DNA of 64,000 nucleotides from Candidatus Omnitrophota bacterium (GCA_029261055.1 JAJDCA010000015.1:19998-83997); one strand, 5' to 3'. Positions 1 through 22,859 are shown, numbered from the stretch's first letter. Program-made: numbers and translations. Notes: generated from the sequence alone by a model not told the origin.

Positions 1-3000
1 CTCTTGAATAGCTTTACTTTGTTTCGTTAATGCAACAATGCGTGATTCCTTATTCTTACCGACAAACTCTACATTCTTTAACTGTTTTTCATATTCTTTA
101 ATTTTCTCTTCTAAAGGCGCTTTCGCTTGAATAATTTGTGACGGAATCGTAGTCTTTACTTCTTTCAACATATTGGCCATATCAGCTAATTTGTTTTTTA
201 ATAAAATACGGTCCTTTTCGCTTTGACTTAATTGTCCTTGAATGGCTTCCCTTTGTTTTGCCAACTCAACAATACGTGATTCTTTCCCCTTAGAGGCAAA
301 CTCTACATTCTTTAATTGTTTTTCATATCCTTTAATTTTCTTTTCTAAAGGCGCTTTCGCTTGGATAATTTGTGACGGCATCGTAGCCTTTACTTCTTTC
401 AATTCATTGGCCGTATCAGCTAACTTGTTTTTTGATAAAATACGATCCTTTTCGCTTTGACTTAATTGTCTTTGAATGGCTTCCCTTTGTTTTGCCAACT
501 CAACAATACGCAGCTCCTTCTTTTGACGAACGGAGGCTTCTTCTCGTAGTTTATTGGAATATTTCCTTATCTTTTCTTCTAAAGGACCTTTAACTGAGGC
601 TAACTGTTGAATTGAAGTTGACTCCGCTTCTTTCAATTTGGCCTCATACATTTTTATCTTCTCTTCCAAAGGCTTCTTACTTTGTATAATTCTTGCTGGA
701 ATGCTCTCTTCCGATTTTTTTAATCTTTTCTTTGTATCCGCAAGCTCCTCCTGCAATAAATTTTTGGCCTTTGTATTTTGTGCAAGCTTTTTACTAATGC
801 CGGAACTTTCTTCTTTTAATCTTTCTAACACTTCTTCTTTGGCATTAATCGAAAGTTTAGATATTTTTAAATCTGTTTCGTATTTTTTAATTTTTTCTTC
901 TAAAGGTTCTTTAGCTTTGGCAATTTGTGATGGAACAGAAGCCATCGTTTTTTTCACTGTATCGGTGGCACTGGCTAACTCTCTTTGTAATGAAGCCCTT
1001 TCTTCTTTTATTTGAGTTAACTGCTTTTGAATAGCTTCACTTTGCTTCCTTAATGCAACAATTCGTGATTCCTTATCCTGACCCACTAACTCCATATTAT
1101 TTACCCGTTTTTCATATCCTTTAATTCTTTCCTCTAAAGGTGATTTAGCTCGAATAATTTGTGATAGAACAGAGGTCTTCAACTCTTTCAAGGTATCGTT
1201 AGTGTCTGCGAGTTTGTTTTCTAAAAAAACACGATCCTTTTTACTTTGATTTAATTGCACTTGAATACTTGAGCTTTGTTCTGCCAATTCAATAATACGC
1301 TGATCTTTCTTTTCACGAACAGATGATTCGTCTTTCAATTTATTGGCATATTCCTTTATCTTTTCTTCTAACGGCATCTTAGCTTCGACCAATTGTTTGG
1401 CTGTAGCGGCCTCCGCCTCTTTTAATTTAGCTTCATAACTTCTTATCTTCTCCTCCAAAGACGCTTTGATTTTCATAATTTTTGTCGGAATACTTGCTTT
1501 TGTTTCTTTCAATGCTTTCTTCGTATCCGACAACTCTTCCTGTAATAAATCCCGTGTCTTTTCATTCTTTGCCATCTGTTTACGAATATCCGAATGCTCG
1601 CCCTTTAACTTTGCCAATTTTTCTTCTTTAGCATTAATTGAAAGCTCAGATATTTTTAAATCTGATTCATATTCTTTAATCTTTTCTTCCAAGGGCTCCT
1701 TGGCTTTGATAATTTGTAACGGAATAGCGGACTTCAGCTCTTTCAAGGTATCGTCAGTGTCTAAGAATTTATTTTCTAAGAAAATACGGTCTTGTTCAAT
1801 TTGTCTTAATTGTTTTTGAATATTTTCATTTTGTTTTGCCAAATCAACAATGCGTCGTTCCTTTTTTTCACGAATGGATGTTTCATCCTTTAATTTATTG
1901 GCATATTCCTTTATCTTTTCTTCTAACGGCATCTTAGCTTCGACTAATTGTTTAACTGTAGCGGCCTCGGCCTCTTTTAATTTAGCTTCATAACTTCTTA
2001 TCTTCTCCTCCAAAGACGCTTTAATTTGCATAATTTTTGTCGGGATACTTGCTTCTGTTTCTTTCAATGCCTTCTTCGTATCCGCCAACTCTTCCTGTAA
2101 TAAATTCCGTGTCTTTTCATTCTTTGCCATCTGTTTACGAATATCCGAATGCTCGCCCTTTAACTTTGCCAGCTTTTCTTCTTTAGCATTAATTGAAAGC
2201 TCAGATATCTTTAAATCTGATTCATATTCTTTAATCTTTTCTTCCAAGGGTTCCTTGGCTTTGGCAATTTGTGACGGAATAGCGGATTTCAGCTCTGTTA
2301 ATACACCGTTTGTATCTACGAATTTGTTTTCTAACAAAATACGGCCTTGTTCAATTTGTCGTAATTGTTTTTGAATATTTTCATTTTGTTTTGCCAAATC
2401 AACAATGCGTCGTTCCTTCCTTTCACGAATGGATGTTTCATCCTTTAATTTATTGGCATATTCTTTTACCTTTGATTCTAAAGACAACTTAACTTCAGCT
2501 AATTGCTTGCGTGCAGATGCTTCCGATTCTTTTAATTTAACCTCGTAAGCGCTTATCTTGCCTTCCAAAGGTTTTTTGTTTTGCATAATCATTGTCGGAA
2601 TACTTTCTTCTGTTTCTTTTAATTTTCTCTTTGTATCCGCCAATTCCTCCTGCAATAATCCCTGTGTCTGTGTATTTTGTGCAAGCTGCTTACGAATACT
2701 TACATTTTCCTCCTTAAACGTTGCCAACCTTTCTTCCTTAACACCACTCGAAAGCTCAGATGCGTTTAAATCTATTTCATATCTTCTAATTTTTTCCTCA
2801 AGAGGTGACTTGGCTTGCGCAATTTGTGATGGAATAGACGTTTTCAATTCTTTCACCATATCATTGGCATCTTCCAATTTATTTTCTAAAAAAATACGGT
2901 CCATTTCACTTTGATTTAGTTTCTTTTCAATGCTCTCGCTTTGTTGCGCCAACTCAACAATACTCTGCTCTTTCTCTTCACGAGAAGACACTTCGGCTTT

Positions 3001-5838
3001 CAATTCGTTCCTTGCATCCGCCAATTCCTCCTGCAACATTTCCTGTGCCTTTGTATTTTTTACAAGCTGTTCACGAACATCTAAATGAGCTTCCTTTAAG
3101 TTTTCTAACTTCTTTTCTTTAACATCAATCGAAAGCTTAGACATTCTTAAATCTGTTTCATACTTTCTAATCTTTTCTTCTAAAGATTCTTTAGCTTGGA
3201 CAATTTGTGATGGAATAGACGTCTTCAATTCTTTCAGCACATTATTCACATCTGCCAGTTTATTTTCTAAAAAAACATGGCCTTTTTCGCTTTCACTTAA
3301 CTGCTTTTGAATACTTTCGTTTTGCTGTGTTAATTCAATAATACGACGCTCTTTCTTTTCACGCGCGGATGCCTCATTCTTTAACTTATTTTCATGTTCT
3401 TTTACCTGGGCCTTTAACGGCTCCTTAGCGTCAGATACCTGCTTGATAGTCCTCGCCTCTGCTTCTTTCAATTTAGCTTCATAAAACCTTGTCTTCTCTT
3501 CCAATTGTTTACGCATTTCTCGATTATCCGCCTTAAATTTAACCAAATTCTCTTCCTTAGCCTTACGTGAAAATTCATTAACCTTTAAATTTGACTCATA
3601 ATCTTCAATTCGTTCTTCCAAAGGTTCTTTGGCCTTGGCAATCTGCACCGGAATAGATAATTTCACTTTTTCCAATATCCCGTTAGAATCAAATAATTTA
3701 TTTTTCAAAATATCATGTTCTTCTTTGACATAACTTAATTCTTTTTGAATTTTTTCATTCTGTGTTGTTAACGTAATAATACGTGACTCTTTATCCCTGT
3801 CGGTAAGCTGGATATTTTTTAGCTTTCTTTCGTATTCTTCAAGCTTTTCTTCTAAAGGCACTTTAACCTGCATAATTTGTGATGGCACAGACACCTTCAT
3901 TTCTTTCAATAAAGTGTCTGTCTCCGCCAACTTATTCTCTAAGGAATTACGGTCCTTTTGGGTTTGAGTTAATTGGCTCTGAATGCTTTCATTTTGTTTT
4001 GTCAGCTCAGAAATACGCTGCTCTTTAGAAGATTTTGTTTCTTTTAATTTAGCGTCGTGTATTTTGACTTGTTTTTCAAGTGTTTCTGCTTTCTCTTTCA
4101 AATCCGCCGCTACTTTTTCGCTTTGCTGAAATTTATTATCAAGATTTTCTTTTTCTTTTGCTAGCTCATCTAATGCTTTTTCTTTTTCTTTAAGTAACGA
4201 CTTAGTCTCACTCAACTTCTTCCCATAAGTTCGAATCTCATCCTCCAATGGTGATTTGGCTTGAGAAACTTCTTTAAGTAATGTTCTTTCCGCTTTTTTC
4301 AATTTCTTTTGTGCCGTCTCCCATTTTTCTTTAAGAGCCATTCTTGCAACATCACTTTCCTGTAATTTCAAATCAATTGTTTCGCTTTTCACCACAAGTT
4401 CTGAAATCTTTTCTTCCTTTGCCTTACGCATCGACTTTTCGAATTTTACCTCTTCTTCAAGAACACTTATCTTTTGCTCTAGCGGAACTCGCATTTCTGT
4501 AAATTGGGCCGACAGGGTGTTCTTCCTATCCATCAATTTTTCTTTCAGGGTTGCCAATTCTTCTTTTAAGATTTTTTGTTGCCGTTCGCTATCAGACAAC
4601 TGCGACAACTGCTTATCCATATTTTCTTTACTTTCACGTAAAACGGTAAGCTCCGACTCTTGCACCTTCACCAACGCTTCAGCCCTCTTCCATTTGTCTT
4701 CAAGAATAATTTTCTTCTGTTTAGCTTCATTTAATTGTTCACGGACGCTATCATTTTCTGTCTTCAACTTTTGACTCTGAATTTCTTTTTGCTGCACAGA
4801 TACCTTTGTTAACTTTAATTTATCTTTAATAACTTTAATTTCTTCTTCCAACGGAACCTTGACTCTGTTGACTTCATCGCGGAATGACGTCTCTGAATCA
4901 TTAAATTTCCCCCTCACATCTGCCAACTGACTTTCCAATAACGCATTTTTCTGTTGAGCCTTTTTTAACGCTTCATCCGTAGTCTGTTTGGCTTTATCAA
5001 AAGATTTAATACTGCCTTCATTCTCTTGAATGTCTTTTTCCGCTGATTCTAATTTCTTTGTTAAAACCCTAATTTTTGTCTCTAAGGGTAACCGCCCCTC
5101 TTTAACTTTTAGACCGACCGACCTTTTTAATTCTTTCAGCTCACTTTCAAGCAGCGCCAATTCATCATTTAGCTTCGTTTTCTTTTTTTGTAAATCGGAA
5201 ATGTCTCGTGTGGAAGATTGTTGTTTTTTTATTAAGGAATCTAATTCATTTTCTTTTTCTTGGATTATTTCTCGAGAATTATCCAAATTCTTTTCTAAAG
5301 CGAATATTTTTGCCTGAAGAGGAAGCTTAGCTTCATTGACCTTTTCAACAATATTTGTTTCGACAAAGTCAATTTTCTGTTCCAACGGAACCTTAACTTC
5401 TAATAATCTCCGCTGAAATTGGAGTTCCTTTTCTTGAAAACTTCCTCTCAATTCTTTTAATTTTTCAGATAACGACACTCTTTCCTGACGGATACCTGTA
5501 AGCTGATCCAACAACGATTTCTTCTGAAGCTCCAAGTTTTCAATGACGGTATCAGACTCAAAAGAACGGCTGTCGATATCAATCATTTTTTTATGCAGGC
5601 TAAGAACTTCTTTTTCAAGAGAATTCCTTGCCGCATCAAGATCAGCAAGTTCTTGTTGTAGCTGACCTTTATCAGCCCGTAAATTCTGGATAACAAGATT
5701 TCTTCTCTCAATTGTTGCTCTCAGAGATTCTTCGGAATCCAAATCTTTTCCCTGAGCAGAAATAATATTTATCGAAGAAATAATAATAAATGTACTAATG
5801 ATGCATCTGTAAATAAGGGGGGATGTATTAATTTTCAT
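1..5838 (-). CDS. Giant secreted coiled-coil repeat protein, N-terminal >1,945 codons. The C-terminus lies beyond the window start. Not in the supplied ORF track because it is truncated by the window edge.
   Basis: An ATG at 5838..5836 (complement) is followed by a signal-peptide-like N-terminus (MKINTSPLIYRCIISTFIIISSINIISAQG). Minus-strand codon boundaries at 150, 1377 and 1932 share the frame of the ATG at 5838 (all are multiples of 3). The translated units are E/K/L/Q-rich with a recurring (M)PLEEKIKEYE motif. The plus-strand ORFs listed in 242..5317 are low-complexity antisense artefacts. Confidence 0.75.
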   Translation of the reverse strand, partial: MKINTSPLIYRCIISTFIIISSINIISAQGKDLDSEESLRATIERRNLVIQNLRADKGQLQQELADLDAARNSLEKEVLSLHKKMIDIDSRSFESDTVIENLELQKKSLLDQLTGIRQERVSLSEKLKELRGSFQEKELQFQRRLLEVKVPLEQKIDFVETNIVEKVNEAKLPLQAKIFALEKNLDNSREIIQEKENELDSLIKKQQSSTRDISDLQKKKTKLNDELALLESELKELKRSVGLKVKEGRLPLETKIRVLTKKLESAEKDIQENEGSIKSFDKAKQTTDEALKKAQQKNALLESQLADVRGKFNDSETSFRDEVNRVKVPLEEEIKVIKDKLKLTKVSVQQKEIQSQKLKTENDSVREQLNEAKQKKIILEDKWKRAEALVKVQESELTVLRESKENMDKQLSQLSDSERQQKILKEELATLKEKLMDRKNTLSAQFTEMRVPLEQKISVLEEEVKFEKSMRKAKEEKISELVVKSETIDLKLQESDVARMALKEKWETAQKKLKKAERTLLKEVSQAKSPLEDEIRTYGKKLSETKSLLKEKEKALDELAKEKENLDNKFQQSEKVAADLKEKAETLEKQVKIHDAKLKETKSSKEQRISELTKQNESIQSQLTQTQKDRNSLENKLAETDTLLKEMKVSVPSQIMQVKVPLEEKLEEYERKLKNIQLTDRDKESRIITLTTQNEKIQKELSYVKEEHDILKNKLFDSNGILEKVKLSIPVQIAKAKEPLEERIEDYESNLKVNEFSRKAKEENLVKFKADNREMRKQLEEKTRFYEAKLKEAEARTIKQVSDAKEPLKAQVKEHENKLKNEASAREKKERRIIELTQQNESIQKQLSESEKGHVFLENKLADVNNVLKELKTSIPSQIVQAKESLEEKIRKYETDLRMSKLSIDVKEKKLENLKEAHLDVREQLVKNTKAQEMLQEELADARNELKAEVSSREEKEQSIVELAQQSESIEKKLNQSEMDRIFLENKLEDANDMVKELKTSIPSQIAQAKSPLEEKIRRYEIDLNASELSSGVKEERLATFKEENVSIRKQLAQNTQTQGLLQEELADTKRKLKETEESIPTMIMQNKKPLEGKISAYEVKLKESEASARKQLAEVKLSLESKVKEYANKLKDETSIRERKERRIVDLAKQNENIQKQLRQIEQGRILLENKFVDTNGVLTELKSAIPSQIAKAKEPLEEKIKEYESDLKISELSINAKEEKLAKLKGEHSDIRKQMAKNEKTRNLLQEELADTKKALKETEASIPTKIMQIKASLEEKIRSYEAKLKEAEAATVKQLVEAKMPLEEKIKEYANKLKDETSIREKKERRIVDLAKQNENIQKQLRQIEQDRIFLENKFLDTDDTLKELKSAIPLQIIKAKEPLEEKIKEYESDLKISELSINAKEEKLAKLKGEHSDIRKQMAKNEKTRDLLQEELSDTKKALKETKASIPTKIMKIKASLEEKIRSYEAKLKEAEAATAKQLVEAKMPLEEKIKEYANKLKDESSVREKKDQRIIELAEQSSSIQVQLNQSKKDRVFLENKLADTNDTLKELKTSVLSQIIRAKSPLEERIKGYEKRVNNMELVGQDKESRIVALRKQSEAIQKQLTQIKEERASLQRELASATDTVKKTMASVPSQIAKAKEPLEEKIKKYETDLKISKLSINAKEEVLERLKEESSGISKKLAQNTKAKNLLQEELADTKKRLKKSEESIPARIIQSKKPLEEKIKMYEAKLKEAESTSIQQLASVKGPLEEKIRKYSNKLREEASVRQKKELRIVELAKQREAIQRQLSQSEKDRILSKNKLADTANELKEVKATMPSQIIQAKAPLEKKIKGYEKQLKNVEFASKGKESRIVELAKQREAIQGQLSQSEKDRILLKNKLADMANMLKEVKTTIPSQIIQAKAPLEEKIKEYEKQLKNVEFVGKNKESRIVALTKQSKAIQE
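1322..2431 (-). repeat. Two near-identical tandem 555-bp (185-codon) coding repeats inside the giant coiled-coil gene. Degenerate copies of the same unit, and of a shorter ~237-bp sub-unit, occur throughout 1..5000.
   Basis: The MPLEEKIKEY codons recur at 1377 and 1932 (555 bp apart) with almost identical flanking sequence. 'ttctaaaggcgctttcgcttg(a/g)ataatttgtgacgg' recurs at 108 and 345. Confidence 0.8.
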
Positions 5839-6652
5839 AGGACCTTTTCTTTCTTTCTAATAATTCGACTATTTTTTTTAATTTAACTTTTAAATGAACA
5901 ATGGTTTTTTGTAATTTCTTAATTTCAACCTGACTTTTATCTTTTTTCTGAACATCCTGCAATTGTTGATTTTCATGTTTCAATAAAGAATTCTGTAATT
6001 CTAATTTTTTAATTTTTTCTTTGGCTAATTTAAAATCAAGGCTTAATTGTTCATGCTCAGCATCTAAAATCTTTTTTTCATTCAAAAGCTCTGCTAAATT
6101 ATTCGTTAGCGTAAGATAATTGCCCGATAGTTTCTGAAATTGATCAAAAGCCTGCTGCCTATTGGCAGATACCACTCCATCCGGCATAGCAGAACCCTCT
6201 TCGGAAATGCTTACGTCAAGAGTAATCCCGGAGTTTTTTTCCGAAACCTCTTGAACAAGACGACTCTTCTCTGCTTTCCTCTCTTCAGAAACTTTTCTTT
6301 TCTTTTCTTCAACCGTAAATATCTTAACCACCTGACTCCCGACTTGCAGATCCTGAAATTCCATGCGCATGGCAAATTTCCCTTTTCTCCTGGAGGGAAT
6401 CAACTTGGATATGGCACTGGACGTCTCTGCCACCTCTAAATGCGTGATAAAATGCCCCTCCTGATAAATTTCGACGATATCGCCTTTCTTAAGATCCATA
6501 CTGCTAAGATCTGTAAAGGCTATCTTGTATTTTTTGTTAACATTGATAATCTCGCCATAAACTTCTTCCTGGGCAAATACATTCCCGCTAAACCCGACAA
6601 AACAACTAAAAACGAATAGTACGACACTCACATATTTTCTTAAATTTTTCAT
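5828..6652 (-). CDS. Secreted protein with an N-terminal signal peptide, a small beta-rich domain and a C-terminal coiled coil. It sits in an operon immediately upstream of the giant coiled-coil gene.
   Basis: 274-aa ORF. The signal peptide is MKNLRKYVSVVLFVFSCFVGFSGNVFAQ. The C-terminal half is K/E/L/Q-rich heptad-like. Its stop overlaps the giant gene start by about 11 nt. Confidence 0.55.
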   Translation of the reverse strand: MKNLRKYVSVVLFVFSCFVGFSGNVFAQEEVYGEIINVNKKYKIAFTDLSSMDLKKGDIVEIYQEGHFITHLEVAETSSAISKLIPSRRKGKFAMRMEFQDLQVGSQVVKIFTVEEKKRKVSEERKAEKSRLVQEVSEKNSGITLDVSISEEGSAMPDGVVSANRQQAFDQFQKLSGNYLTLTNNLAELLNEKKILDAEHEQLSLDFKLAKEKIKKLELQNSLLKHENQQLQDVQKKDKSQVEIKKLQKTIVHLKVKLKKIVELLERKKRSYEN

Positions 6653-7734: not shown

Positions 7735-8486
7735 TTTAAAGAAAAACCCCTCATTTTTTCAAGAAATGTGTAATCTGTTGAATCACTATGGATAGGCGTT
7801 ACGGTAACATAATTATCGTTGAGATAATACGTGTCACTTTGATCATTCTTCTTTTTTCCAGGTAACTTCCCGGCCATCCAATAATATTCACGCAAATTTG
7901 GATCACGACGTTTACGAAAAGTGCCATGAATCGGCTTCAATCCCTGACGTACCATGCGAATACCTTTAATCTGAGAAGGTTTTACATGAGGCACATTCAC
8001 ATTAAGAAATGTTCCTTTAGGGATGTTTTTGTTACCGAATGACTGAACTAATTTCGCTCCGCATTTAGCGGCATAACTAAAATCTGCATCGCCAAACGTA
8101 TTTAATGATATGGCCAACGCAGGAATCCCAAGCAAAGCTCCTTCACGGGCACCGGCCACTGTTCCTGAATAAAAAACACTGCACCCTTCATTCGGCCCTA
8201 AATTAATCCCAGAAACAACCACATCCGGTTTCTTTTTGAGAAGAACACTGGTCGCAAACTTCACACAATCGGCAGGCGTTCCACTAATACCCGTCCCAAA
8301 AAAACGACCCTTACGCTTAACCCTACTATGCCAAAGCGGATGTGCCAATGTAATCCCATGGCCAACCGAACTCTTCTGCGTATCCGGAGCAACTATTGTA
8401 ATGGAACCTAACTTCTTCAATTCCAAGTACAAAGCATAAATCCCCTCTGCATAAATCCCATCATCATTCGTCAAAAGTATGTGCAT
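7731..8486 (-). CDS. surE: 5'/3'-nucleotidase SurE.
   Basis: The N-terminal MHILLTNDDGIYAEGIYAL motif and the length (251 aa) are typical of SurE. Its stop overlaps the downstream HD-GYP regulator start. Confidence 0.85.
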   Translation of the reverse strand: MHILLTNDDGIYAEGIYALYLELKKLGSITIVAPDTQKSSVGHGITLAHPLWHSRVKRKGRFFGTGISGTPADCVKFATSVLLKKKPDVVVSGINLGPNEGCSVFYSGTVAGAREGALLGIPALAISLNTFGDADFSYAAKCGAKLVQSFGNKNIPKGTFLNVNVPHVKPSQIKGIRMVRQGLKPIHGTFRKRRDPNLREYYWMAGKLPGKKKNDQSDTYYLNDNYVTVTPIHSDSTDYTFLEKMRGFSLK

Positions 8487-8531: not shown

Positions 8532-9374
8532 TTAAGTAGAATGCGCTTTGACTACGGTAGGCTGGGGCCGGCTTTTTTTGAGAAAAAAGACGATGGTGCT
8601 CAAATAAAGAACATAACTCACAACTTCAATCAATGATGGATTGCCGTTGTAGCCGAATAAGGCCTTAAGAAAAGAACCAATGCCTTGCTTTTCATTAAGG
8701 ATATGATTGATGTTCCAAACCGGAGCGTGGATTTCGGGGATGAGGTGAATTTCCTGAAGTTCATGAATACCGTAAGCAAGGAGACCTGCGGCAATTAAAA
8801 GTAAAAAGGCTCCACTGACACGAAAAAGTTTTCTAACAGGAACGCGTTTGCCTCCCATAAAAATAGCCGCTGCAATAAATACGGCCAATGCAAAACCTGC
8901 CAACCCTCCGACTGCGGAGACTGCATTTGAATTTCGTGCGGACATCGCGGTTAAAAATAATACTGTTTCTGCGCCTTCACGAAAAATGGCAAAAAATGGC
9001 AGACTAACAATAGCCATGTATTCGCTGTGGGTGATCGCAACTTCCATTTTAGACTCAATCGTACCCTTAATTTTTTTCGACTGACTATTCATCCAAAAAA
9101 CCATGTAGGTTAAAATACCGCACGCAATAAGCGAAATACCCCCTTCAATTAATTTTTCCGCACCTCCCTTAGCTGATTCTGTCAATGACATCAAACCTAT
9201 CCCAGCCATGATACTCACTCCAATCGCCACAAAAGAACTCACAAACACATGGATAAAATATTTTTTCTGATGCATCCTCGCTAACACTGTCAGAATAATC
9301 CCGATAACTAAACTGGCCTCGAGAGTTTCGCGAAACATAATAATAAATGTGGTAAAAATTGCGCCTGCGTCCAT
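8532..9374 (-). CDS. High-affinity iron permease, FTR1/EfeU family. The start is probably the internal Met (MDAGAIF) at 9374 rather than the track start at 9440.
   Basis: Two REXXE motifs (FRETLEAS, FREGAETVLFL) in a polytopic membrane protein. The 22 upstream codons of the track ORF lie inside an intergenic hairpin-repeat element. Confidence 0.7.
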   Translation of the reverse strand: MDAGAIFTTFIIMFRETLEASLVIGIILTVLARMHQKKYFIHVFVSSFVAIGVSIMAGIGLMSLTESAKGGAEKLIEGGISLIACGILTYMVFWMNSQSKKIKGTIESKMEVAITHSEYMAIVSLPFFAIFREGAETVLFLTAMSARNSNAVSAVGGLAGFALAVFIAAAIFMGGKRVPVRKLFRVSGAFLLLIAAGLLAYGIHELQEIHLIPEIHAPVWNINHILNEKQGIGSFLKALFGYNGNPSLIEVVSYVLYLSTIVFFLKKSRPQPTVVKAHST

Positions 9375-9384
9375 GTATTTTTCT

Positions 9385-9556
9385 CCTTGCTTTTTAAAAG
9401 AAGCAAAGTTGCAAGAAACAAGATGCAAAGAAAAAAGCAAAAATCAAAATCTTTTTTTGTTTCTTTACTTCTTACCTCTTGCCTTTTACTTCTTACTTTT
9501 CTATCTCTTAACTTTTTCTCTGCTTCTCATTTCTTTGCCTCTTACTTCTTTACTCA
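9385..9556. repeat. Purine-arm/pyrimidine-arm imperfect inverted-repeat element (AGAAGTAAGAG / CTCTTACTTCT family), copy 1.
   Basis: A purine-rich arm (aaagaagcaaagttgcaagaaacaagatgcaaagaaaaaagc...) is followed by a ~105-nt almost pure-pyrimidine tract (ctttacttcttacctcttgccttttacttcttac...). It lies between the tonB stop and the FTR1 start. Confidence 0.55.
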
Positions 9557-10143
9557 ACTAATCTAAATTCTACCGGAACGGTAATCTGTGATGAAAATGT
9601 CAAGTCGCCGGATTGCGCCGGTGAAAATTTCCAATTTTGAACCGTGCTTAATGCTGCTTCATCTAAAATTTTGTATCCCGAATTTTTTTCAATTTCAACC
9701 CGTGAAGCCATCCCATCCTTCGTAACAAACACACGTAAAATAACCACCCCTTCCCAACCACGCCGTCGGGCAACCCGCGGATACGCAGGTGCCGGATTAA
9801 TGTAATCTAAAGGTTTTGCCTCCACTTCCGCCCCTTTGGATTCATGACTTTCCACGACAATAGGCTCTACCTCCTCAACAGGCTTTTCTACCTTTTCCTC
9901 TACAGGTGGTTGATAAACTTCCGGTGAAGGTTCTATAGTCTCTTCAATGGCCACTACTTTTTCATATTCAATAACTTCTTCAATTTCCGGAACAGGTGGC
10001 TCTTCAACAAAAACCATCTCTAACGTATTCGGCGCCTGCAAAACAGCCATCTGCGGCGATGTCGGCATAAACTGCCCTGCACCTAAAACAGCTAAGTGTC
10101 CAGACAATGACAAAAATAATATCGGCATAAAAGCATCTTTCAT
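9550..10143 (-). CDS. tonB: Energy transducer TonB.
   Basis: A Pro/Glu-rich spacer (EEPPVPEIEEVIEYEKV...PVEEKVEKPVEE) and a TonB C-terminal domain (YPRVARRRGWEGVVILRVFVTKDGMASRVEIEKNSGYKILDEAALSTVQNWKFSP). Confidence 0.75.
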   Translation of the reverse strand: MKDAFMPILFLSLSGHLAVLGAGQFMPTSPQMAVLQAPNTLEMVFVEEPPVPEIEEVIEYEKVVAIEETIEPSPEVYQPPVEEKVEKPVEEVEPIVVESHESKGAEVEAKPLDYINPAPAYPRVARRRGWEGVVILRVFVTKDGMASRVEIEKNSGYKILDEAALSTVQNWKFSPAQSGDLTFSSQITVPVEFRLVE

Positions 10144-10541
10144 GGCGAATCCCTTTGGTGCACAATATTCACCTGTTGCGCTCCGGCTTGCCGGGCTACA
10201 TCCATCACCTCAACAAAATAATGATACGGCATATTTTGATCGCCACGTACATGAACAGAATTTTTGCCCGACTGCGCAAATTGCTTTTGCAAGTCTGCCT
10301 TCAGTGCTGCCATGGAAGTTTCTGTATCATTTAAAAAAAGGGCACCTTCCTGATCGATACTCACCACAATATGTTCTTGCGGAATATTGTCGTCAGCCAT
10401 CGCCTTGGGTAAATCCAACTTCATGGCTGGATTGGCAAACGTGGAGGTCAACATAAAAAACACCAAGAGCTGAAAAACAACATCAATCAACGGTGCCATA
10501 TCAATACTTAATTTAGGTTTTCGTGTACGTATGAGTTCCAT
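10140..10541 (-). CDS. exbD: Biopolymer transport protein ExbD/TolR.
   Basis: 133 aa with a single N-terminal TM segment (MAPLIDVVFQLLVFFMLTSTF) and an ExbD-type periplasmic domain. Overlaps tonB. Confidence 0.8.
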   Translation of the reverse strand: MELIRTRKPKLSIDMAPLIDVVFQLLVFFMLTSTFANPAMKLDLPKAMADDNIPQEHIVVSIDQEGALFLNDTETSMAALKADLQKQFAQSGKNSVHVRGDQNMPYHYFVEVMDVARQAGAQQVNIVHQRDSP

Positions 10542-10576: not shown

Positions 10577-11257
10577 TTATTGTGTTACGTTAATTTTCTC
10601 ATTTTCTGCTTCCGGATTAGCCGCCTTAAAATCATGCGCCGTGGGTTGTCCAAAATATTCATCTAACTCAGAAACAATGCCTTGCATACGTCGGGCAATA
10701 CGATCAGCACGACTTTCAAATCCATGGTAGGCCACCATGCACGGAATGGCTACAATCAAACCAAAAACAGTACTTAATAAAGCTTCCCATATGCCTCCAG
10801 CCAAACTTTGCACCTGCACCTGACCGGCCGATAATTCGATTTGATGAAATGCCATCACCAAACCGGCCACCGTACCCAACAATCCTAATAACGGCGCAAT
10901 ATGTGTAATCGTTGCTAAGCCCCTTAAACGACGCTCAACTTTTTCAATAGCCATAGACCCTTCACGACTCAAAACACTATCCCGAAGTTTGTGACGAAGA
11001 TGCTGCAAATAAATACCGGCAATACGCGCAACCGGATTTCGGAATTTATGACAATACCCTACAGCTTCCTCTTGTTTACCTGAACGCAATAAATTAAACA
11101 GTTTCTGACTGAACCCTGCATAATTAATGTGCAGCCGTGAAAAATAATACAGCCTTTCCATGATGATGGCCGTACCGATAACCGAGCACACAAAGAGCGG
11201 CCAACGTGTCAGTCCCGCCTTAGTAAACAAATCCGATAAATTTTGAAACCAATGCAT
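10577..11257 (-). CDS. exbB: MotA/TolQ/ExbB proton-channel protein.
   Basis: 226 aa with three TM segments, a conserved ExbB C-terminal core (LATITHIAPLLGLLGTVAGLVMAF) and exbBD-tonB gene order. Confidence 0.8.
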   Translation of the reverse strand: MHWFQNLSDLFTKAGLTRWPLFVCSVIGTAIIMERLYYFSRLHINYAGFSQKLFNLLRSGKQEEAVGYCHKFRNPVARIAGIYLQHLRHKLRDSVLSREGSMAIEKVERRLRGLATITHIAPLLGLLGTVAGLVMAFHQIELSAGQVQVQSLAGGIWEALLSTVFGLIVAIPCMVAYHGFESRADRIARRMQGIVSELDEYFGQPTAHDFKAANPEAENEKINVTQ

Positions 11258-11280: not shown

Positions 11281-11416
11281 GCAGAGAAGTAAAGAAACAA
11301 GAAGTAGAGATAAAAACAAAAAATTAAATTCACTCTTCTACTTCTCTACTTCTTACTTCTCTGCATCTCTCCTTCTTATTTCTCTGCTTCTTGCCTCTCT
11401 ATTTCTTACTTCTTAA
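11281..11416. repeat. Purine-arm/pyrimidine-arm inverted-repeat element, copy 2, between the TonB-dependent receptor stop and the exbB start.
   Basis: gcagagaagtaaagaaacaagaagtagagataaaaac, then a loop, then tcttctacttctctacttcttacttctctgcatctctcc.... gcagagaagta (11281-11291) pairs with tacttctctgc (11356-11366). Confidence 0.55.
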
Positions 11417-13671
11417 AACACTACCTCCATCCCAAACGTCGCCGTAAACGGTTTTCCCGGTCGTGGTCCATGAGGATGGCGAGAAACGATGTATTCAAGA
11501 TCTCCCACATTATGAAGATTCGCTAGCACTTTAGCATTTTTAGTTAGATTGTAATGTCCGGACACATCCACAACAAAAAATTCATCTGTCTTGCCGAAAC
11601 GGGCATCCGGCGTGGTGCCGTCGGCTTGTAACTGTGCATCGACATTATTGGCTGTTGTAAATGTTTCAGGAACATAAGACCCATCCACAAAAACGCCCCA
11701 TTTTTCAAATTCTAATCCTGTCCCCACACTAAACTGCACTTCAGGAACATACGGGACTTTATTCCCATCCTTGCCTCCACTAAAAATTGATTCGGCATCT
11801 GTCGAATTCGAATCCCCATCAAGCTCAGCATTCGTGTAGGTTAGCGCTAAATAATAAGGGTTTTTAAACGCTTTTTCATTAGCAATCCCAAAATCATATT
11901 GAGCCTTAAATTCTAGGCCCTGGGAAACCACCTTACCAATATTTTCACTGTCACCGGTTCCACCGCCCCCGATATTATCCTTGACCAAAAGATCATCAAA
12001 GTTAGTATGAAAATACGTCAGTTCTGTACTCAAGGCATCACTCTTCTTCCATCGAAGACCAAGTTCTTTTGTTAAACTTGTTTCCTCATCTAAATCAGAT
12101 TTGGCATTATCTCTCGGCCCTGGAACAGAAAATCCTTGATGCACACCTCCAAAAGCCGATAGCTCATCGGAAAACACATATTGCAAACCTGCGCCCCCAG
12201 CAAAGGCTGTAATGTCCGAACTATCTTGCGCAGTAATAACTCCAGGCGTAACCCCTCCTGTACTGAAATCAACAAATTCGTATTGGACATGCTCATACCG
12301 AAAACCTGGCGTAAATGTCCATGCCCCCCAATCAATATTATCGCGCAGATAACTTGAAATAGAGATAGACTCTTGCCGTCGATTACCGGCTGTACCCGGC
12401 GCACTCGATGAAATCCCCGTGATCACGCCACTCGCATCTTGCGTGTAGGTATCAGTGTTTTGATCCCGTCGGACATAATCTTGATGAAAACCGAGCCCCC
12501 ATTCAATATCATGCGTAAAATCTCCAGTGGTTAAATCAAAGTTTACATTATTAAGAAGACCCCACTGGGCATACTCTCTATTATTATTACGTACATCAAA
12601 CGTGCCCGCGGCTGTACCGCGCATAACATCAAGGGCAGCTCCCCCCGAGGCTAGAACGCTTGAAAGACTACTCCCCGAAACACTTTGCAACTTAGACCAA
12701 TTACGTTGAAACTCATTGTAATAACCAGTCAATGTAACCATGGCATGTTCATTTAATTCTGTACCGTAACGCAAATAACTGCGCGATTGCCGTGTTTGAA
12801 TATTGTCAAAACGTGTAGCCGCATAACGACGATAAGGATTGTCATCAAAGTCAGATTCCGTTAACCCTAAATAGGTTTCATTAGCATCTAAGTCCGTGTA
12901 ACCAAATTTTCCTTCTACCTTCTGATACCGCAAGGTTTCCGGCGAACTTTCCCAGGAAAGCTTTAACATCGGCTCTGATTTAGTAAAACCTGTATCCCCC
13001 CCATCAGTAAAATCGGCCGTAGTATCTATTACCTTAAATCCATCATTTGACCGATAATATTCTTCTAATAAATATCCAATACGTCCAAAACTTGTATCCA
13101 TCGTATCCCCGACATAGGCATGGACCCGACCTTCTTCATTGTCACCATAAAGGCCTTTCAAATAAAATTGTTGTTTTTTGGGAATAGGCGTGGAAAGATA
13201 ATTGACCACCCCACCGGTAGTATGTGGACCATATTTAACCTGGCTGGAACCTTTTAAAACCTCAATCTTATTCATGCGTCCTGCCGTTGGTGAATAATAA
13301 GCCGAAGGTGCAGAATAAGGAGCCGGTGCCGCTGTCACACCATCCTCCATCAAAGTTACCTTTTGGCTACGCCCCACATCCACTCCACGCAAACTGATAT
13401 TAGGAAATAACCCATGACCATCTTCTTCTCTTAAATAGACACCTGGAATTTTTCGCAAAATGCGATTCACATCATCGTAACTATGTTTGCGAATATCTGA
13501 CACACTTACACTGTCACCTGATCCAGGTAACGAGGCTTCGCCTTCTTTAGATCCCAAAACGGTCACAACATTCAAGGCATAATTCTGCCGATCCTCGGCC
13601 TCGGCCATCGTTGCGACCCCCAATAAAATTACGCCTAATCCACAAGCCATTCGTAAATTTTTAAATCTCAT
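11413..13671 (-). CDS. TonB-dependent outer-membrane receptor, probably for a siderophore or metal.
   Basis: 752 aa with an N-terminal signal peptide, a plug region and a beta-barrel with a C-terminal aromatic residue (...GMEVVF). It sits downstream of a Fur-box-like palindrome and upstream of exbB-exbD-tonB. Confidence 0.85.
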   Translation of the reverse strand: MRFKNLRMACGLGVILLGVATMAEAEDRQNYALNVVTVLGSKEGEASLPGSGDSVSVSDIRKHSYDDVNRILRKIPGVYLREEDGHGLFPNISLRGVDVGRSQKVTLMEDGVTAAPAPYSAPSAYYSPTAGRMNKIEVLKGSSQVKYGPHTTGGVVNYLSTPIPKKQQFYLKGLYGDNEEGRVHAYVGDTMDTSFGRIGYLLEEYYRSNDGFKVIDTTADFTDGGDTGFTKSEPMLKLSWESSPETLRYQKVEGKFGYTDLDANETYLGLTESDFDDNPYRRYAATRFDNIQTRQSRSYLRYGTELNEHAMVTLTGYYNEFQRNWSKLQSVSGSSLSSVLASGGAALDVMRGTAAGTFDVRNNNREYAQWGLLNNVNFDLTTGDFTHDIEWGLGFHQDYVRRDQNTDTYTQDASGVITGISSSAPGTAGNRRQESISISSYLRDNIDWGAWTFTPGFRYEHVQYEFVDFSTGGVTPGVITAQDSSDITAFAGGAGLQYVFSDELSAFGGVHQGFSVPGPRDNAKSDLDEETSLTKELGLRWKKSDALSTELTYFHTNFDDLLVKDNIGGGGTGDSENIGKVVSQGLEFKAQYDFGIANEKAFKNPYYLALTYTNAELDGDSNSTDAESIFSGGKDGNKVPYVPEVQFSVGTGLEFEKWGVFVDGSYVPETFTTANNVDAQLQADGTTPDARFGKTDEFFVVDVSGHYNLTKNAKVLANLHNVGDLEYIVSRHPHGPRPGKPFTATFGMEVVF

Positions 13672-13761
13672 TTCTTTCTCCTAAAACTGTTTGATCGATT
13701 ATTTTAATTTAACCTACTAGCCCCTCATAAAACCAATTTTTTATTCTCTCTCCTTTCTAAA

Positions 13762-13923
13762 TTATTGGGCGTTGGATTCTCGATCTCGAGCCTCAGGTGT
13801 TAACTCACATAAAGGGATCACATGAATTCTTTTGCAACGGTGACATTTAAATTCAATCCCCTTAGGCGTCTTTTTTAAAAGAAGTTTTCCACATTCACAA
13901 CGTTCATCTACACATATTTCCAT
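13762..13923 (-). CDS. Small (53 aa) Com-like zinc-ribbon protein. Below the 60-aa cut-off of the ORF track.
   Basis: The translation MEICVDERCECGKLLLKKTPKGIEFKCHRCKRIHVIPLCELTPEARDRESNAQ has CxC...CxxC spacing and KLLxK/IEFKCxRCKR motifs that closely resemble the phage Mu Com zinc-ribbon family. It lies between the Fur-box palindrome and the receptor gene. Confidence 0.45.
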   Translation of the reverse strand: MEICVDERCECGKLLLKKTPKGIEFKCHRCKRIHVIPLCELTPEARDRESNAQ

Positions 13924-13998
13924 GATTAACCTTTTTCCTGAACATGAAATTCATTTTCACAATTGATTTAAAAAATTTTGCCGGATAAGCCGGCTCGT

Positions 13999-14025
13999 TG
14001 AAAATGAAAACCATTTTCATTTTCA
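13999..14025. promoter_or_regulatory. Fur-box-like 27-bp palindrome (TGAAAATGAAAAC-C-ATTTTCATTTTCA) in the promoter region of the Com-like/TonB-dependent receptor operon.
   Basis: A near-perfect 13-1-13 inverted repeat built from GAAAAT hexamers, which are one mismatch from the GATAAT Fur hexamer. A second, smaller ATGAAATTCAT palindrome lies at 13943..13960. fur is the adjacent gene. Confidence 0.5.
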
Positions 14026-14037
14026 TAGCAAAAAAAT

Positions 14038-14463
14038 TTAGTGACACCTCTTACATAAACCAAAAATTTCCAAACGATGTTTTTGCGGTTGAAACGTGTT
14101 TTCTTTGCATAATTTCTGACTCAATCGTTCAATGCTTTTGTCAAACACTTCAAAATGATGTCCACAACTTGTACAAATAAAATGAGAATGATACTCGCGA
14201 CCCACCTTACGTTCAAAACGCTTAACCCCATCATCAAAATCCACCTTCTCGGCAAGCCCGCTGGAGACAATTAACTTCATAGCACGGTAAACCGTGGTGT
14301 AACCAATTTCCGGATATTTACTTTGAACCAAATCACTCAAATCTTGCACACTTAAATGCCTTTTAGCCTTTAAAAAAGCATGTAAAATACGGTCACGTTT
14401 TACGGACCGCTTTAAGCCTTTTTCGGAAACATGATTTTGAAAAAGTGTCATTTCATCTTTCAT
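14038..14463 (-). CDS. fur: Ferric uptake regulator (Fur family).
   Basis: 141 aa with a winged-helix N-terminus and metal-site motifs HHFICTSCGHHFEV and CKRCH. Confidence 0.8.
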   Translation of the reverse strand: MKDEMTLFQNHVSEKGLKRSVKRDRILHAFLKAKRHLSVQDLSDLVQSKYPEIGYTTVYRAMKLIVSSGLAEKVDFDDGVKRFERKVGREYHSHFICTSCGHHFEVFDKSIERLSQKLCKENTFQPQKHRLEIFGLCKRCH

Positions 14464-14520
14464 TAAAATTGAACCTCGCTTCGCTCGTCAATTTTTAGTC
14501 TTCAGTCATCAGTGATTTAT

Positions 14521-14545
14521 TTCAAGAATTAATTTAATTCTTGAA
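14521..14545. promoter_or_regulatory. Perfect 25-bp palindrome (TTCAAGAATTAAT-T-TTAATTCTTGAA) in the divergent fur / cvpA-like intergenic region.
   Basis: Seen directly. The first 12 nt are the reverse complement of the last 12. Confidence 0.3.
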
Positions 14546-14618
14546 CATCTGAATAATTAATGCGATACTACCATTCGTTATTTTTTTTGTCAATAATAAA
14601 TTCAAAATAAGTTTTCCT

Positions 14619-15371
14619 ATGCCTTATTTAAACACAAATACCGATATCATTGTTGCCGTAGCCTTTGGAATTTTCTTTTTATGCGGCTGGATGAAAGGTT
14701 TTTTACGCTCCCTTGCCGGCCCTCTCTCCCTTGTTGTCGGCTCTCTTGCAGGAATAGCCTACTACCGACAAACACAAAATATCGCCTTAGCTCTAACCAT
14801 CTCGACCGTCGGGCCATTCTTTCTGAATTTTGCCCTTTCCTTCTTTTTAAAAACCTGGCGTAAAACAATTAACAAAGATCAAGACCTCTCTCTGATCAGC
14901 CATATCCTGGGAGGATGCTTCACGACACTTTGGAGTGGAACAATATTTATTTTGTTTTTTATTCTTCTCACGCTCATCCCTGGACAACTATCTTGGTTAA
15001 AAAATATTCAAAACGACATCCACAATTCTGCCATCTACAACTTGATCAATACATTGAGTGAAGACCGTTTATCCTCGGCTCATGTAAGTATTGAAAACAT
15101 AACAGAGTTGGCCAAAAATCCGTCAAAATTTGAAGAGTTCGCTGATGCAGAGAAATTTGACGAACTGATGGACAACCCCACTTTTAGTGATCTTTTTTCC
15201 GATGAAGAAACCCTTCAACAAATTGAAAATAAAAATATTTCAGAATTATTAACTAATCCAAAAATGCAAAGCCTCCTCGAGGATAAAAACCTCCTCCAAA
15301 AAATCATGGAATTCCAACAAGATATTATTAAAAAAGGTTTCAAATCTAACCTTCAATCTAACATAGAATAA
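14619..15371 (+). CDS. CvpA-like membrane protein with an acidic C-terminal extension.
   Basis: An N-terminal [37 protein letters not shown] segment resembles CvpA. Four predicted TM segments precede a D/E-rich tail. Confidence 0.4.
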
Positions 15372-21293: not shown

Positions 21294-22859
21294 ATGAAAA
21301 AAATATTTTATTCACTCACATTTATATTAACGCTGTCATTTGCTATAACAGCACAAGCTGAACAGCTTCAGCTTACAACCTACTATCCTGCTCCTTATGG
21401 AGCATACGACAAGCTACTTCTGGTTCCACGCACCCCTTTGAGCGGTAGCTGCCAGACAGGTACGCTTTATATGGAAGACATAGGTAATGGCGATGGAGAA
21501 ATAAGACTTTGTGATAAAGGAATCTGGGCTCCTATTTCAGGCCATTGGAAGCAAGAAAACGATGATATCTTTTTAGTCGATACAGCAACAAACCCTGATT
21601 TATTTGTAGGTATTGGAACCACTAATCCAGGTGCTCGCCTTTCGGTACAAGGCTACGGGAACAGCGCAACAACAGCCAGTCTCAATATGACAAACAGTGA
21701 TGGAAACAGCATACTGTATGCCAGAGATGACAGAAATGTCGGCATTGGAACAACCAACCCTTCAGCGAATTTAGATATTAATAACAATGGCGACCTTACA
21801 GGGGATCCTCTTGGCAGTAATTTATGGTTTCGCCTTTCCGGTGGATCCACCATTGATCACGGACGTATTTGGGCTCAATATTCCAACACTCAAGCTCCTA
21901 TTCTCGTTATGGAAGATGATGACGACCCTTCACGCATTCAATTTCAACAGGTAGGTACAGGCACAGAGTCAACGCCAGAGTTTGTCAGCTGGGTCGGTAT
22001 GGGGAAAAAGAATTCCAGTGACATTGCCCTTATGGGAGGAAAAGTCGGTATCGGTACCACTGACCCTTTAAGTAATCTGCACATCAAAGCGCCTTCGCCA
22101 TCTATAATTTTAGAAAGAGAAGATAATGCCCAAGCAGCTGCTCTAGCATTTTTTCCTAATGGGGCTATTTCCCCTACAAACATGTATTGGGCCATGGGGC
22201 TCAATCTAAATAGTAACCATTTTGTTATCGCTAATGATAGCAACACATCCTTTCCTAACAACATAAGATTTACCATTAAAGATGACGGTAAAGTCGCTAT
22301 GGGAGGAAATCATATTCCCCAAACTGATCTGCATATAAAGGGAAATGGTGTGCTTAGATTAGAAGATACTAGCGTAGCAATAGACTTCATAAATGAGAAT
22401 TCTGGTGACGATAATTTTAGTATTGCTTCTTGGGGCGGAAGTAAAGATATGCTCAGATTTCGATCTAACAAAGATGGAACTTGGGACGATATTGTCCAGT
22501 TTGAAAGTGATGGCGATGTATGGGTCGAAGATGATGTAACGGCCGATGAATACAAAACACATTCTGACGTTCGCCTTAAAAAAAATATCCTACCACTGAC
22601 AGACGCGCTCTCACGTGTGACACAGCTCCGTGGTGTTAACTACCAATGGAGAGATACCGATAAAGATCAAGGAAAAATTCAAATGGGTCTCATCGCTCAG
22701 GAAGTAGAAGAAGTATTTCCTGAAGTCGTTTCAACTGACGAAGACGGATTCAAATCTGTAGCCTATAGTAAACTTGTTGCTGCTTTGATCGAAGCTGTTA
22801 AAGAATTAAAAGCAGAAAATGATGATCTTAAATTGAGGATTGAGAAAATAGAAAAATAA
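21294..22859 (+). CDS. Secreted fibre/adhesin-like protein with IGTTxP-type repeats and a C-terminal S74 intramolecular-chaperone auto-processing domain (phage tail-spike type).
   Basis: Signal peptide MKKIFYSLTFILTLSFAITAQA. Repeated (V/I)GIGTT(N/D)P motifs. The C-terminal ~125 aa (HSDVRLKKNILPL...GLIAQEVEEVFPEVV...LIEAVKELKAENDDLKL) match the conserved core of the peptidase S74 chaperone domain, spanning roughly 22485..22856. Confidence 0.65.
   Translation: MKKIFYSLTFILTLSFAITAQAEQLQLTTYYPAPYGAYDKLLLVPRTPLSGSCQTGTLYMEDIGNGDGEIRLCDKGIWAPISGHWKQENDDIFLVDTATNPDLFVGIGTTNPGARLSVQGYGNSATTASLNMTNSDGNSILYARDDRNVGIGTTNPSANLDINNNGDLTGDPLGSNLWFRLSGGSTIDHGRIWAQYSNTQAPILVMEDDDDPSRIQFQQVGTGTESTPEFVSWVGMGKKNSSDIALMGGKVGIGTTDPLSNLHIKAPSPSIILEREDNAQAAALAFFPNGAISPTNMYWAMGLNLNSNHFVIANDSNTSFPNNIRFTIKDDGKVAMGGNHIPQTDLHIKGNGVLRLEDTSVAIDFINENSGDDNFSIASWGGSKDMLRFRSNKDGTWDDIVQFESDGDVWVEDDVTADEYKTHSDVRLKKNILPLTDALSRVTQLRGVNYQWRDTDKDQGKIQMGLIAQEVEEVFPEVVSTDEDGFKSVAYSKLVAALIEAVKELKAENDDLKLRIEKIEK

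Follow-up and report, generated by a model that had tools for sequence, protein, structure and literature searches.

A Com-like zinc-ribbon mini-gene, a conserved leader RNA element and Fur-box palindromes at the head of an iron-uptake locus in Candidatus Omnitrophota

The stretch of DNA analysed here (referred to as the window) covers 64 kb from an uncultivated bacterium of Candidatus Omnitrophota and contains an iron-uptake locus in which fur, a small zinc-ribbon gene (hereafter ZR), a receptor gene and the downstream uptake genes all lie on the minus strand. The fur gene (14038..14463) encodes a Fur-family repressor of 141 amino acids and is followed by ZR (13762..13923, 53 amino acids, ATG start, MEICVDERCECGKLLLKKTPKGIEFKCHRCKRIHVIPLCELTPEARDRESNAQ), whose product is a Com-like zinc ribbon, and by the gene of a TonB-dependent receptor (11413..13671, 752 amino acids with Plug and beta-barrel domains). 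Pfam matches identified the next four genes as exbB (10577-11257), exbD (10140-10541), tonB (9550-10143) and the iron permease gene FTR1 (8532-9440), beyond which lie surE and a gene for a response-regulator/HD protein. Two clusters of palindromic Fur-box-like sites (13999..14025 and 13939..13959) separate fur from ZR, and a 28-nt element, GAGGCUCGNGAUCNNGAAUCCNNNGCCC (RNA GAGGCUCGAGAUCGAGAAUCCAACGCCC; 13767-13794, minus strand), overlaps the last ten codons of ZR (EARDRESNAQ). Related loci are designated by L numbers. The window receptor is 64-67% identical to the receptors of L001 and L005, and the order exbB-exbD-tonB-FTR1 is the same in L095.

An earlier note on this DNA, made from the sequence alone, had reported an unannotated 53-codon open reading frame (ORF) between the palindromes and the receptor gene; the ORF is there (13923..13762), starts with ATG and encodes the peptide quoted in that note. 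Its product occurs in a sequence collection, where it comes from an NCBI assembly and from Logan and carries neither accession nor name. A search with the single sequence returned three proteins, a genome scan returned seven metagenome-assembled genomes of Candidatus Omnitrophota, a word-indexed search with the family profile returned 287 proteins and an exhaustive profile search returned 1450 cluster representatives at E<=1e-3. At the 13 invariant residues of the ZR core only 0.46 of the third codon positions are identical between loci, i.e. synonymous sites are saturated, which indicates selection on the protein. Judged by these comparisons, the ORF is a real gene that is conserved in Candidatus Omnitrophota. 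The AlphaFold2 model of ZR contains three beta-strands (pLDDT, the predicted local distance difference test score, of 74). A Foldseek search of the PDB with this model gave no match below E 1 and only generic zinc-knuckle fragments, the family profile matched PDB sequences at chance level only (E>0.2), and no family was matched in Pfam (E<=1) or NCBIfam, the hemP domain included. The window protein does not carry the C-terminal motif EFxN(L/I)CPVI that is typical of its family.

In four loci (L016, L059, L061 and L078) the small ORF 5' of the element encodes 76-89 amino acids, retains just one of the four zinc-binding cysteines and shares the motif VRSDGGKLLF...KCPRTKKI. This subfamily has gained a C-terminal cysteine cluster, C-x10-C-x2-C-x8-C, and is followed by the same RNA element; by hhalign the cysteine-less homologues match the ZR family with 96.7% probability (E 3e-10).

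The note had also likened the peptide to Com, the translational activator of phage Mu, and this kinship holds up as remote homology, although neither the expected Pfam match nor the canonical first knuckle was found. In BLASTP, ZR and Mu Com (a sequence 100% identical to AF083977.1) share 15 of 30 aligned residues (E 4e-5), and comparison of the ZR family profile with Com by hhalign gave a probability of 95.4% (E 1.8e-8) in an alignment that requires a one-residue gap in the first knuckle. Among 38,880 PHROG families the window peptide matched only phrog_13819 (gpCom) and phrog_6417 (translational regulator), the same two families that rank highest for three other members of the ZR family, and about a dozen ZR relatives bear the JGI label 'phage FluMu protein Com'. 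Two points count against the assignment. The search for PF10122 (Com; gathering threshold 22.9 bits) that had been proposed as a check returned no match for the window peptide even at E<=1, while 19 of 61 relatives gave weak matches (best E 0.0012) and Mu Com itself scored 36.8 bits. The cysteines of ZR, invariant in 61 sequences, form a CxC (C9, C11) followed by a CxxC (C27, C30), so that the first knuckle is not the CxxC of the PF10122 pattern CxxC...CxxC. On balance the sequence comparisons support ZR as a remote relative of Com.

The 28-nt element occurs once in the window and in 18 distinct loci altogether, in all of which a ZR-family gene precedes it; on its other side it is followed by iron-uptake genes. 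It is in frame with the ORF in 12 of these loci, the window included, and untranslated or out of frame in the other six: in L001 and L005 it lies past the stop codon in another frame, the ORF ending 8-10 nt before it, and in the four cysteine-less loci it lies 80-130 nt beyond the ORF. Metagenomes were also scanned with the DNA pattern alone, blind to protein. Of 85 hits about 10 were true copies, and the rest, mostly chance matches in GC-rich coding DNA along with the antisense strand of an apparent transfer RNA (tRNA) gene, were discarded; every true copy had a ZR-family ORF just 5', which was cysteine-less in four cases. In the loci that had been found through the protein and are thus unbiased for the element, the element was present in nine of ten with cargo genes downstream and in none of six without cargo (Fisher p ~1e-3, two of the six cargo-less loci being near-identical). 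Over the 'codons' of the element in these unbiased loci third-position identity is ~0.94, as opposed to 0.46 in the ZR core, a pattern by which the element is constrained at the nucleotide level. An interpretation of the element as a conserved peptide tail (EARDxESNAQ) was rejected because of this difference and because six of the 18 copies are out of frame or untranslated; sigma-54 promoters, extracytoplasmic-function (ECF) sigma promoters and tRNA-like structures fitted poorly by eye and were dropped. Neither the element nor ZR was found on viral contigs. L103 contains, at ~75-125 and 5' of the small gene, a second element-like copy, GCGAGATCTCGAATCCCAAGCCCAT, with a GCCCAT...ATGGGC hairpin followed by a T-run that has the look of an intrinsic terminator.

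The earlier note had placed ZR at the head of a receptor/TonB operon and suggested checking synteny. That position is confirmed in the window, and ZR heads iron-uptake genes in many relatives, but it is not tied to the receptor: in Omnitrophota it is constantly flanked by cysNC on the upstream side and by surE on the downstream side, and the interval between ZR and surE accommodates variable cargo or, in L003, L004, L007, L008, L009 and L099, no cargo at all. The cargo consists of receptor, exbBD and tonB with or without FTR1 in the window, L001, L005 and L095, of exbBD-tonB alone in L006, of exbB-exbD in L102 (at a contig end), of Porin_O_P and FMN_bind in L097, L016 and L061, of Cupredoxin_1 and FTR1 in L047, L062, L066 and L103, of an outer-membrane protein with FeoAB in L078, and of a periplasmic binding protein with an ABC-type permease, presumably specific for iron, in L101. 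Most of these sets are demonstrably for iron uptake. The window, L059, L095 and L097 have an upstream insertion of a fur gene, often accompanied by a truncated fur2. In L105 (5001-5830; GCA_964635345.1), from an unrelated lineage, a member of another ZR subfamily overlaps the tonB start by 4 nt (ATGA) and is followed by tonB, Plug, TonB-dependent receptor, PepSY_TM and PepSY genes; this is a second, independent link of the ZR family to TonB-dependent uptake. Two distant subfamilies, represented by L104 and L106, showed no iron link at their loci.

Relatives share a strong promoter of the form TTGACA-17-TAnnAT with an inverted repeat, AATAAGT-N9-ACTTATT, just 3' of it and often a second AAATAAGT copy 5' of the -35 hexamer (L001 ~7880-7960, L002 ~615-715, L003/L004 ~5940-5990, L095 ~5060-5160, L097 ~5120-5200; also L005, L007-L009, L101 and L102). 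It drives the small gene directly in fur-less loci and fur1 in L095 and L097, and is not present in the window.

The pairing potential of the leader was assessed by folding each sequence separately (RNAfold) and by permutation tests that compared cognate with non-cognate duplexes. In eight of nine long leaders the minimum-energy fold contains a long-range helix whose 5' strand is the element. Within it, nucleotides 2-7 of the element are paired to sequence located -3 to -17 from the cargo start, abutting or overlapping the ribosome-binding site, and nucleotides 10-17 (GAUCNN) to an NNGAUC located at -18 to -27. The strands covary: position 14 is engaged in G-C, A-U or U-A pairs, positions 7 and 9 in C-G or A-U pairs, and a 1-nt insertion in the element of L001 is compensated on the opposite strand. 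Cognate duplexes reach -14.6 kcal/mol as compared with -11.8 kcal/mol for non-cognate ones, the cognate value being attained by only 4 of 20000 permutations, and shuffled partners give -8.5 +/- 0.8 kcal/mol. In the window the predicted 3' strand (UCGAUC...AGUUUU; 13683..13698, minus strand, -12 to -27 from the receptor start) abuts the AGGAG ribosome-binding site of the receptor gene, and the support for this helix is comparative. A second hairpin is predicted between the 3' end of the element (GCCCAA) and a downstream UUGGGC (cognate -9.6 versus non-cognate -7.8 kcal/mol, 6 of 20000 permutations, shuffled -6.25 +/- 0.56 kcal/mol). It encloses the ribosome-binding site and AUG of the cargo gene in the compact leader of L005 and, by eye, in that of L078, and a relic, AGAAAGGAGG, in the long leaders. 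MAFFT alignment followed by RNAalifold yielded nothing beyond invariant local pairs without covariation and missed the long helix, because its 3' strands lie at variable distances and are misaligned. A hexaloop hairpin formed locally by the element itself (U6-A17, C7-G16) was considered and rejected: it shows no covariation, and A7 in L095 breaks it and keeps the long-range pair.

Upstream of ZR, the palindrome described in the earlier note as near-perfect is present at 13999-14025 (TGAAAATGAAAACCATTTTCATTTTCA) and has perfect 12-nt arms around 3 nt; at its centre lies the 15-mer TGAAAAC-C-ATTTTCA (14005-14019), with extra half-sites on either side at 6-bp shifts. The smaller palindrome of the note is likewise present, as two overlapping boxes at a 6-bp shift (13939-13953 with three mismatches and 13945-13959 with one mismatch to TGAAAATNATTTTCA) that lie 60 bp from the first cluster, are 86% identical to it and end 15 nt before the ZR ATG. 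The identical 15-mer TGAAAATGAATTTCA is found in L059, 12 nt 5' of the homologous small gene. A scan of the 64 kb for TGAAAATNATTTTCA gave two sites with at most one mismatch, 13945 and 14005, both at this locus, and the only site with two mismatches (4127) lies within a coding region; at three mismatches 23 sites were found and 19.6 expected, so that meaning is limited to the two strong sites. The Fur box of delta-proteobacteria has the consensus WTGAAAATNATTTTCAW, a 17-bp palindrome from which 14004-14020 (ATGAAAACCATTTTCAT) and 13944-13960 (ATGAAATTCATTTTCAC) each deviate by one core mismatch; this motif, itself a computational prediction, was described 5' of feoAB, of fur genes and of a gene for a PF07396-like porin, in tandem boxes at a 6-bp shift, together with a truncated FUR2 (Rodionov et al., 2004, PMC545781). 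Related loci totalling 204 kb contain just four boxes with at most one mismatch, which stand directly 5' of ZR (L059, L095, L097) or of fur2 (L095), with an adjacent fur gene in every case, and about 20 related loci without fur have no such box. These data support the view, put forward in the earlier note as a Fur-box-like nature, that the palindromes are Fur boxes of the known delta-proteobacterial type and hence predicted operators.

The product of the window fur gene matches PF01475 with 101.3 bits (cut-off 23.1) over residues 14-133 and ranks as Fur (95 bits) before PerR (66) and Zur (45) in NCBIfam, but stays under all NCBIfam equivalog cut-offs, so that its assignment as Fur rather than a paralogue is settled from context; it is 62-70% identical to the Fur1 proteins whose genes adjoin the small gene of L095, L097 and L059. 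Between the two box clusters lies a GC hairpin followed by a T-run (GCCGGCUUAUCCGGC then AAAAUUUUUU; 13970..13994, minus strand), the only terminator-like site within 13400-14800, which is probably the terminator of fur. Box cluster 1 thereby comes after the fur stop codon and before this hairpin, and may be a remnant of a fur2 promoter region such as that of L095.

The truncated Fur paralogue is not present in the window. In L095 (5660-5950), L097 (5638-5970) and L059 (258-593, minus-strand orientation) its gene separates fur from the small gene, with its own Fur box in L095; the product (96-111 amino acids) matches only the C-terminal half of Fur and resembles the Desulfovibrio FUR2 without DNA-binding domain (PMC545781). 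In the fur 5' leader of the window, just 3' of the best promoter-like site (TTGACA-17-TAGTAT, 14593..14565), there is a perfect 12-1-12 palindrome, TTCAAGAATTAA-T-TTAATTCTTGAA (14521-14545). Since its sequence is unlike the Fur boxes, it may represent a hairpin of the leader or a different operator.

Among the closest known counterparts of this arrangement is com-mom of phage Mu, in which the com ORF spans both the Com target hairpin and a translation-inhibition hairpin (CCCAC-GGAGAAACAUU-GUGGG) that holds the mom ribosome-binding site and GUG start. This inhibition hairpin is opened by Com, which binds to a loop motif beside it (PMC6483171). Both systems have a small basic zinc-ribbon core with a variable tail and detectable homology, an activator gene directly 5' of the regulated gene, and a conserved RNA site at the 3' end of the activator ORF followed by a hairpin, which surrounds the ribosome-binding site and start of the next gene in Mu and in the compact Omnitrophota leaders. 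They differ in that ZR has a CxC knuckle and is sub-threshold for PF10122, is chromosomal in Omnitrophota and precedes iron-uptake rather than DNA-modification genes, in that the Omnitrophota element has another sequence, and in that the long leaders add a long-range helix of ~100 nt. The com-mom operon is under Mu late transcriptional control; the ZR locus would be under Fur instead.

Chromosomal com-like genes (PF10122) also precede llpA bacteriocin, tailocin-cargo and levansucrase genes in Pseudomonas, with a regulatory role that is presumed and unexplored (PMC6240691). They resemble ZR in encoding a Com homologue of ~60 amino acids that is often unannotated and lies immediately 5' of non-phage cargo; unlike ZR they are bona fide PF10122 members from gamma-proteobacteria, and the review text consulted mentions neither a conserved cognate RNA element nor an iron or Fur link. 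With the delta-proteobacterial Fur boxes the locus shares the consensus, the tandem or overlapping boxes shifted by 6 bp, the location 5' of fur and iron-uptake genes including those of PF07396-like porins, and the truncated FUR2 paralogues; it differs in its host, Candidatus Omnitrophota, and in that one cluster comes after the stop codon of fur and before a terminator-like hairpin. HemP/HmuP is a small protein encoded by the first gene of a Fur/Irr-controlled TonB-dependent haem-uptake operon, whose receptor it regulates positively. The two cases have in common that a small gene heads a TonB-dependent receptor operon, but HemP is not a Cys4 zinc ribbon and ZR has no sequence relation to it (no Pfam match at E<=1).

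We propose, with a confidence that stays a little short of even, that the features upstream of the receptor gene form a two-layer control head in which Fur-repressed transcription is combined with Com-like translational control of the iron-uptake operon. The first layer is well supported by the boxes, their linkage to fur and the iron-specific cargo (FTR1 in the window; FeoAB, Cupredoxin with FTR1 or Porin_O_P with FMN_bind in relatives): iron-loaded Fur from the adjacent gene would bind both box clusters and thereby repress ZR, the receptor gene, exbB, exbD, tonB and FTR1, which would be co-transcribed from a weak promoter placed at the proximal cluster, 15 nt 5' of ZR. For the second layer we infer by analogy to Mu Com and mom that upon derepression ZR, a basic Com-like zinc-ribbon mini-protein, would be made, bind the element and keep the leader open, and that translation of the receptor and later genes would thus be promoted; for ZR-RNA binding and for activation as the sign of the effect, it is the architecture that is comparable to Mu. 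In the window, ribosomes translating ZR traverse the whole element, which should add translational coupling in cis. The suggestion of the earlier note that ZR acts as a post-transcriptional regulator of the downstream genes is thereby strengthened by the conserved RNA element, the hairpins and the com-mom-like layout, and stays at the level of a suggestion.

Beside the PF10122 and knuckle discrepancies given above, several observations weigh against this proposal. The covariation tests cover 9 to 12 related sequences, the window leader is no stabler than shuffled sequences (z = -0.59), its helix is rich in G-U pairs and leaves the ribosome-binding site itself uncovered, and L097 is without the long-range helix. 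ZR occurs without element and without cargo in six loci, and L006 has cargo and no element. No sigma-70-like promoter passed in a scan of the fur-ZR spacer, and ZR may be transcribed by read-through from fur.

If the element and its helices instead constitute a ligand-sensing leader or one targeted by small RNAs or RNases, i.e. a riboswitch or processing site, ZR would not be needed and would be a small metal-binding or accessory protein merely sharing the locus. The conserved nucleotides and the two covarying helices fit such an independent cis-acting RNA, as do the loci just named in which ZR or cargo occurs without the element and the retention of other cysteine clusters in the cysteine-less variants. 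We nevertheless consider it unlikely, since no copy of the element was detected without a ZR-family gene nearby, even by the protein-blind scan, its conserved core is one 28-nt strand and not a multi-helix junction, and the homology of ZR points to an RNA-binding translational activator. Nor did Rfam 15 contain a match for the leader: at the gathering level the window, L001 and L002 gave no hit other than an unrelated c-di-GMP-I riboswitch, and at E<=10 the region 13600-14100 gave only implausible eukaryotic, plastid or small-RNA noise.

Pure translational coupling, in which ribosomes on the small ORF melt the leader helix and license the cargo and the peptide has no regulatory role, is in our judgement improbable. 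The 12 of 18 loci, the window among them, in which the ORF reads in frame through the element and stops at or after it speak for coupling, and the Mu com ORF also spans its own target and the mom start. However, in L001 and L005 the ORF ends 8-10 nt short of the element, which lies in another frame, and in L016, L059, L061 and L078 it ends 80-130 nt short of it, and the strong conservation of the protein core with saturated synonymous sites argues that the protein matters.

As to the first layer, the palindromes might not be Fur operators of the operon, and might bind another, Zur-like paralogue of the Fur family or act as RNA hairpins in the fur 3' untranslated region. Their core TGAAAATNATTTTCA is the Zur box of mycobacteria (actinobacteria), which speaks against Fur; box 1, between the fur stop codon and the terminator-like hairpin, could form a 12-bp RNA hairpin; and relatives have a second, truncated Fur paralogue. 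We give this alternative little credence given that the cargo is specific for iron (FTR1, FeoAB, Cupredoxin with FTR1), the adjacent regulator scores best as Fur, the boxes stand directly 5' of start codons in four loci and the delta-proteobacterial Fur box is identical. A role of the element as DNA (operator, alternative-sigma promoter or cassette junction for variable cargo), to which its very high primary-sequence conservation at the boundary between a constant gene and variable cargo would lend itself, is very improbable, as its partners covary with it, strand-specifically and at variable distance, the window has no further copy at the far end of the cargo, on which ground a cassette or recombination junction was rejected, and its two overlapping promoter-like hexamer pairs score 9/12 in a scan whose total of four such pairs is at chance level (4.1 expected) and have -10 hexamers that by eye are not conserved in relatives.

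A bolder form of the two-layer proposal, which we regard as highly speculative, has ZR and the element as a dedicated protein-RNA operator in which RNA binding would be tuned by whether the Cys4 site holds Fe or is in the Zn or apo form. Were it true, the module would be an Omnitrophota counterpart of the logic of iron regulatory proteins and iron-responsive elements (IRP/IRE), with an iron-sensing mini-protein on top of Fur and recruited from a phage-type Com activator.

Literature searches on Omnitrophota combined with iron and TonB and on Omnitrophica combined with zinc ribbon gave no results, and a Com-like gene with a cognate leader RNA at the head of Fur-controlled iron loci across a candidate phylum appears to be undescribed, as does the element as a conserved leader RNA, which would be new to Rfam. 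If our reading is correct, the iron-uptake locus of a whole uncultivated phylum has a divergent branch of the Com family as a constant component, and the range of the GAAAAT-type Fur box extends beyond the delta-proteobacteria. The candidate RNA target with its covarying pairings makes post-transcriptional control by a small protein within a Fur regulon concrete and directly testable. The case also illustrates that the best-conserved element of a locus can be a gene of fewer than 60 codons, a class that often goes without annotation.

Further features of the window lie outside this control region. The spacer of ~110 nt between tonB and FTR1 (~9445-9550, minus strand) is purine-rich and filled by imperfect AAGAAGTAAGAGG-like repeats. 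A very long ORF on the minus strand (1-5838) extends past the window start and has a signal-peptide-like N-terminus and a repetitive, coiled-coil-like composition. The c-di-GMP-I riboswitch (RF01051, 21038-21121 on the plus strand, 66.5 bits, E 1e-10) sits ~170 nt 5' of an ORF (21294-22859) that encodes 521 amino acids with a signal-peptide-like N-terminus and a TTYYPAPYGAY motif.

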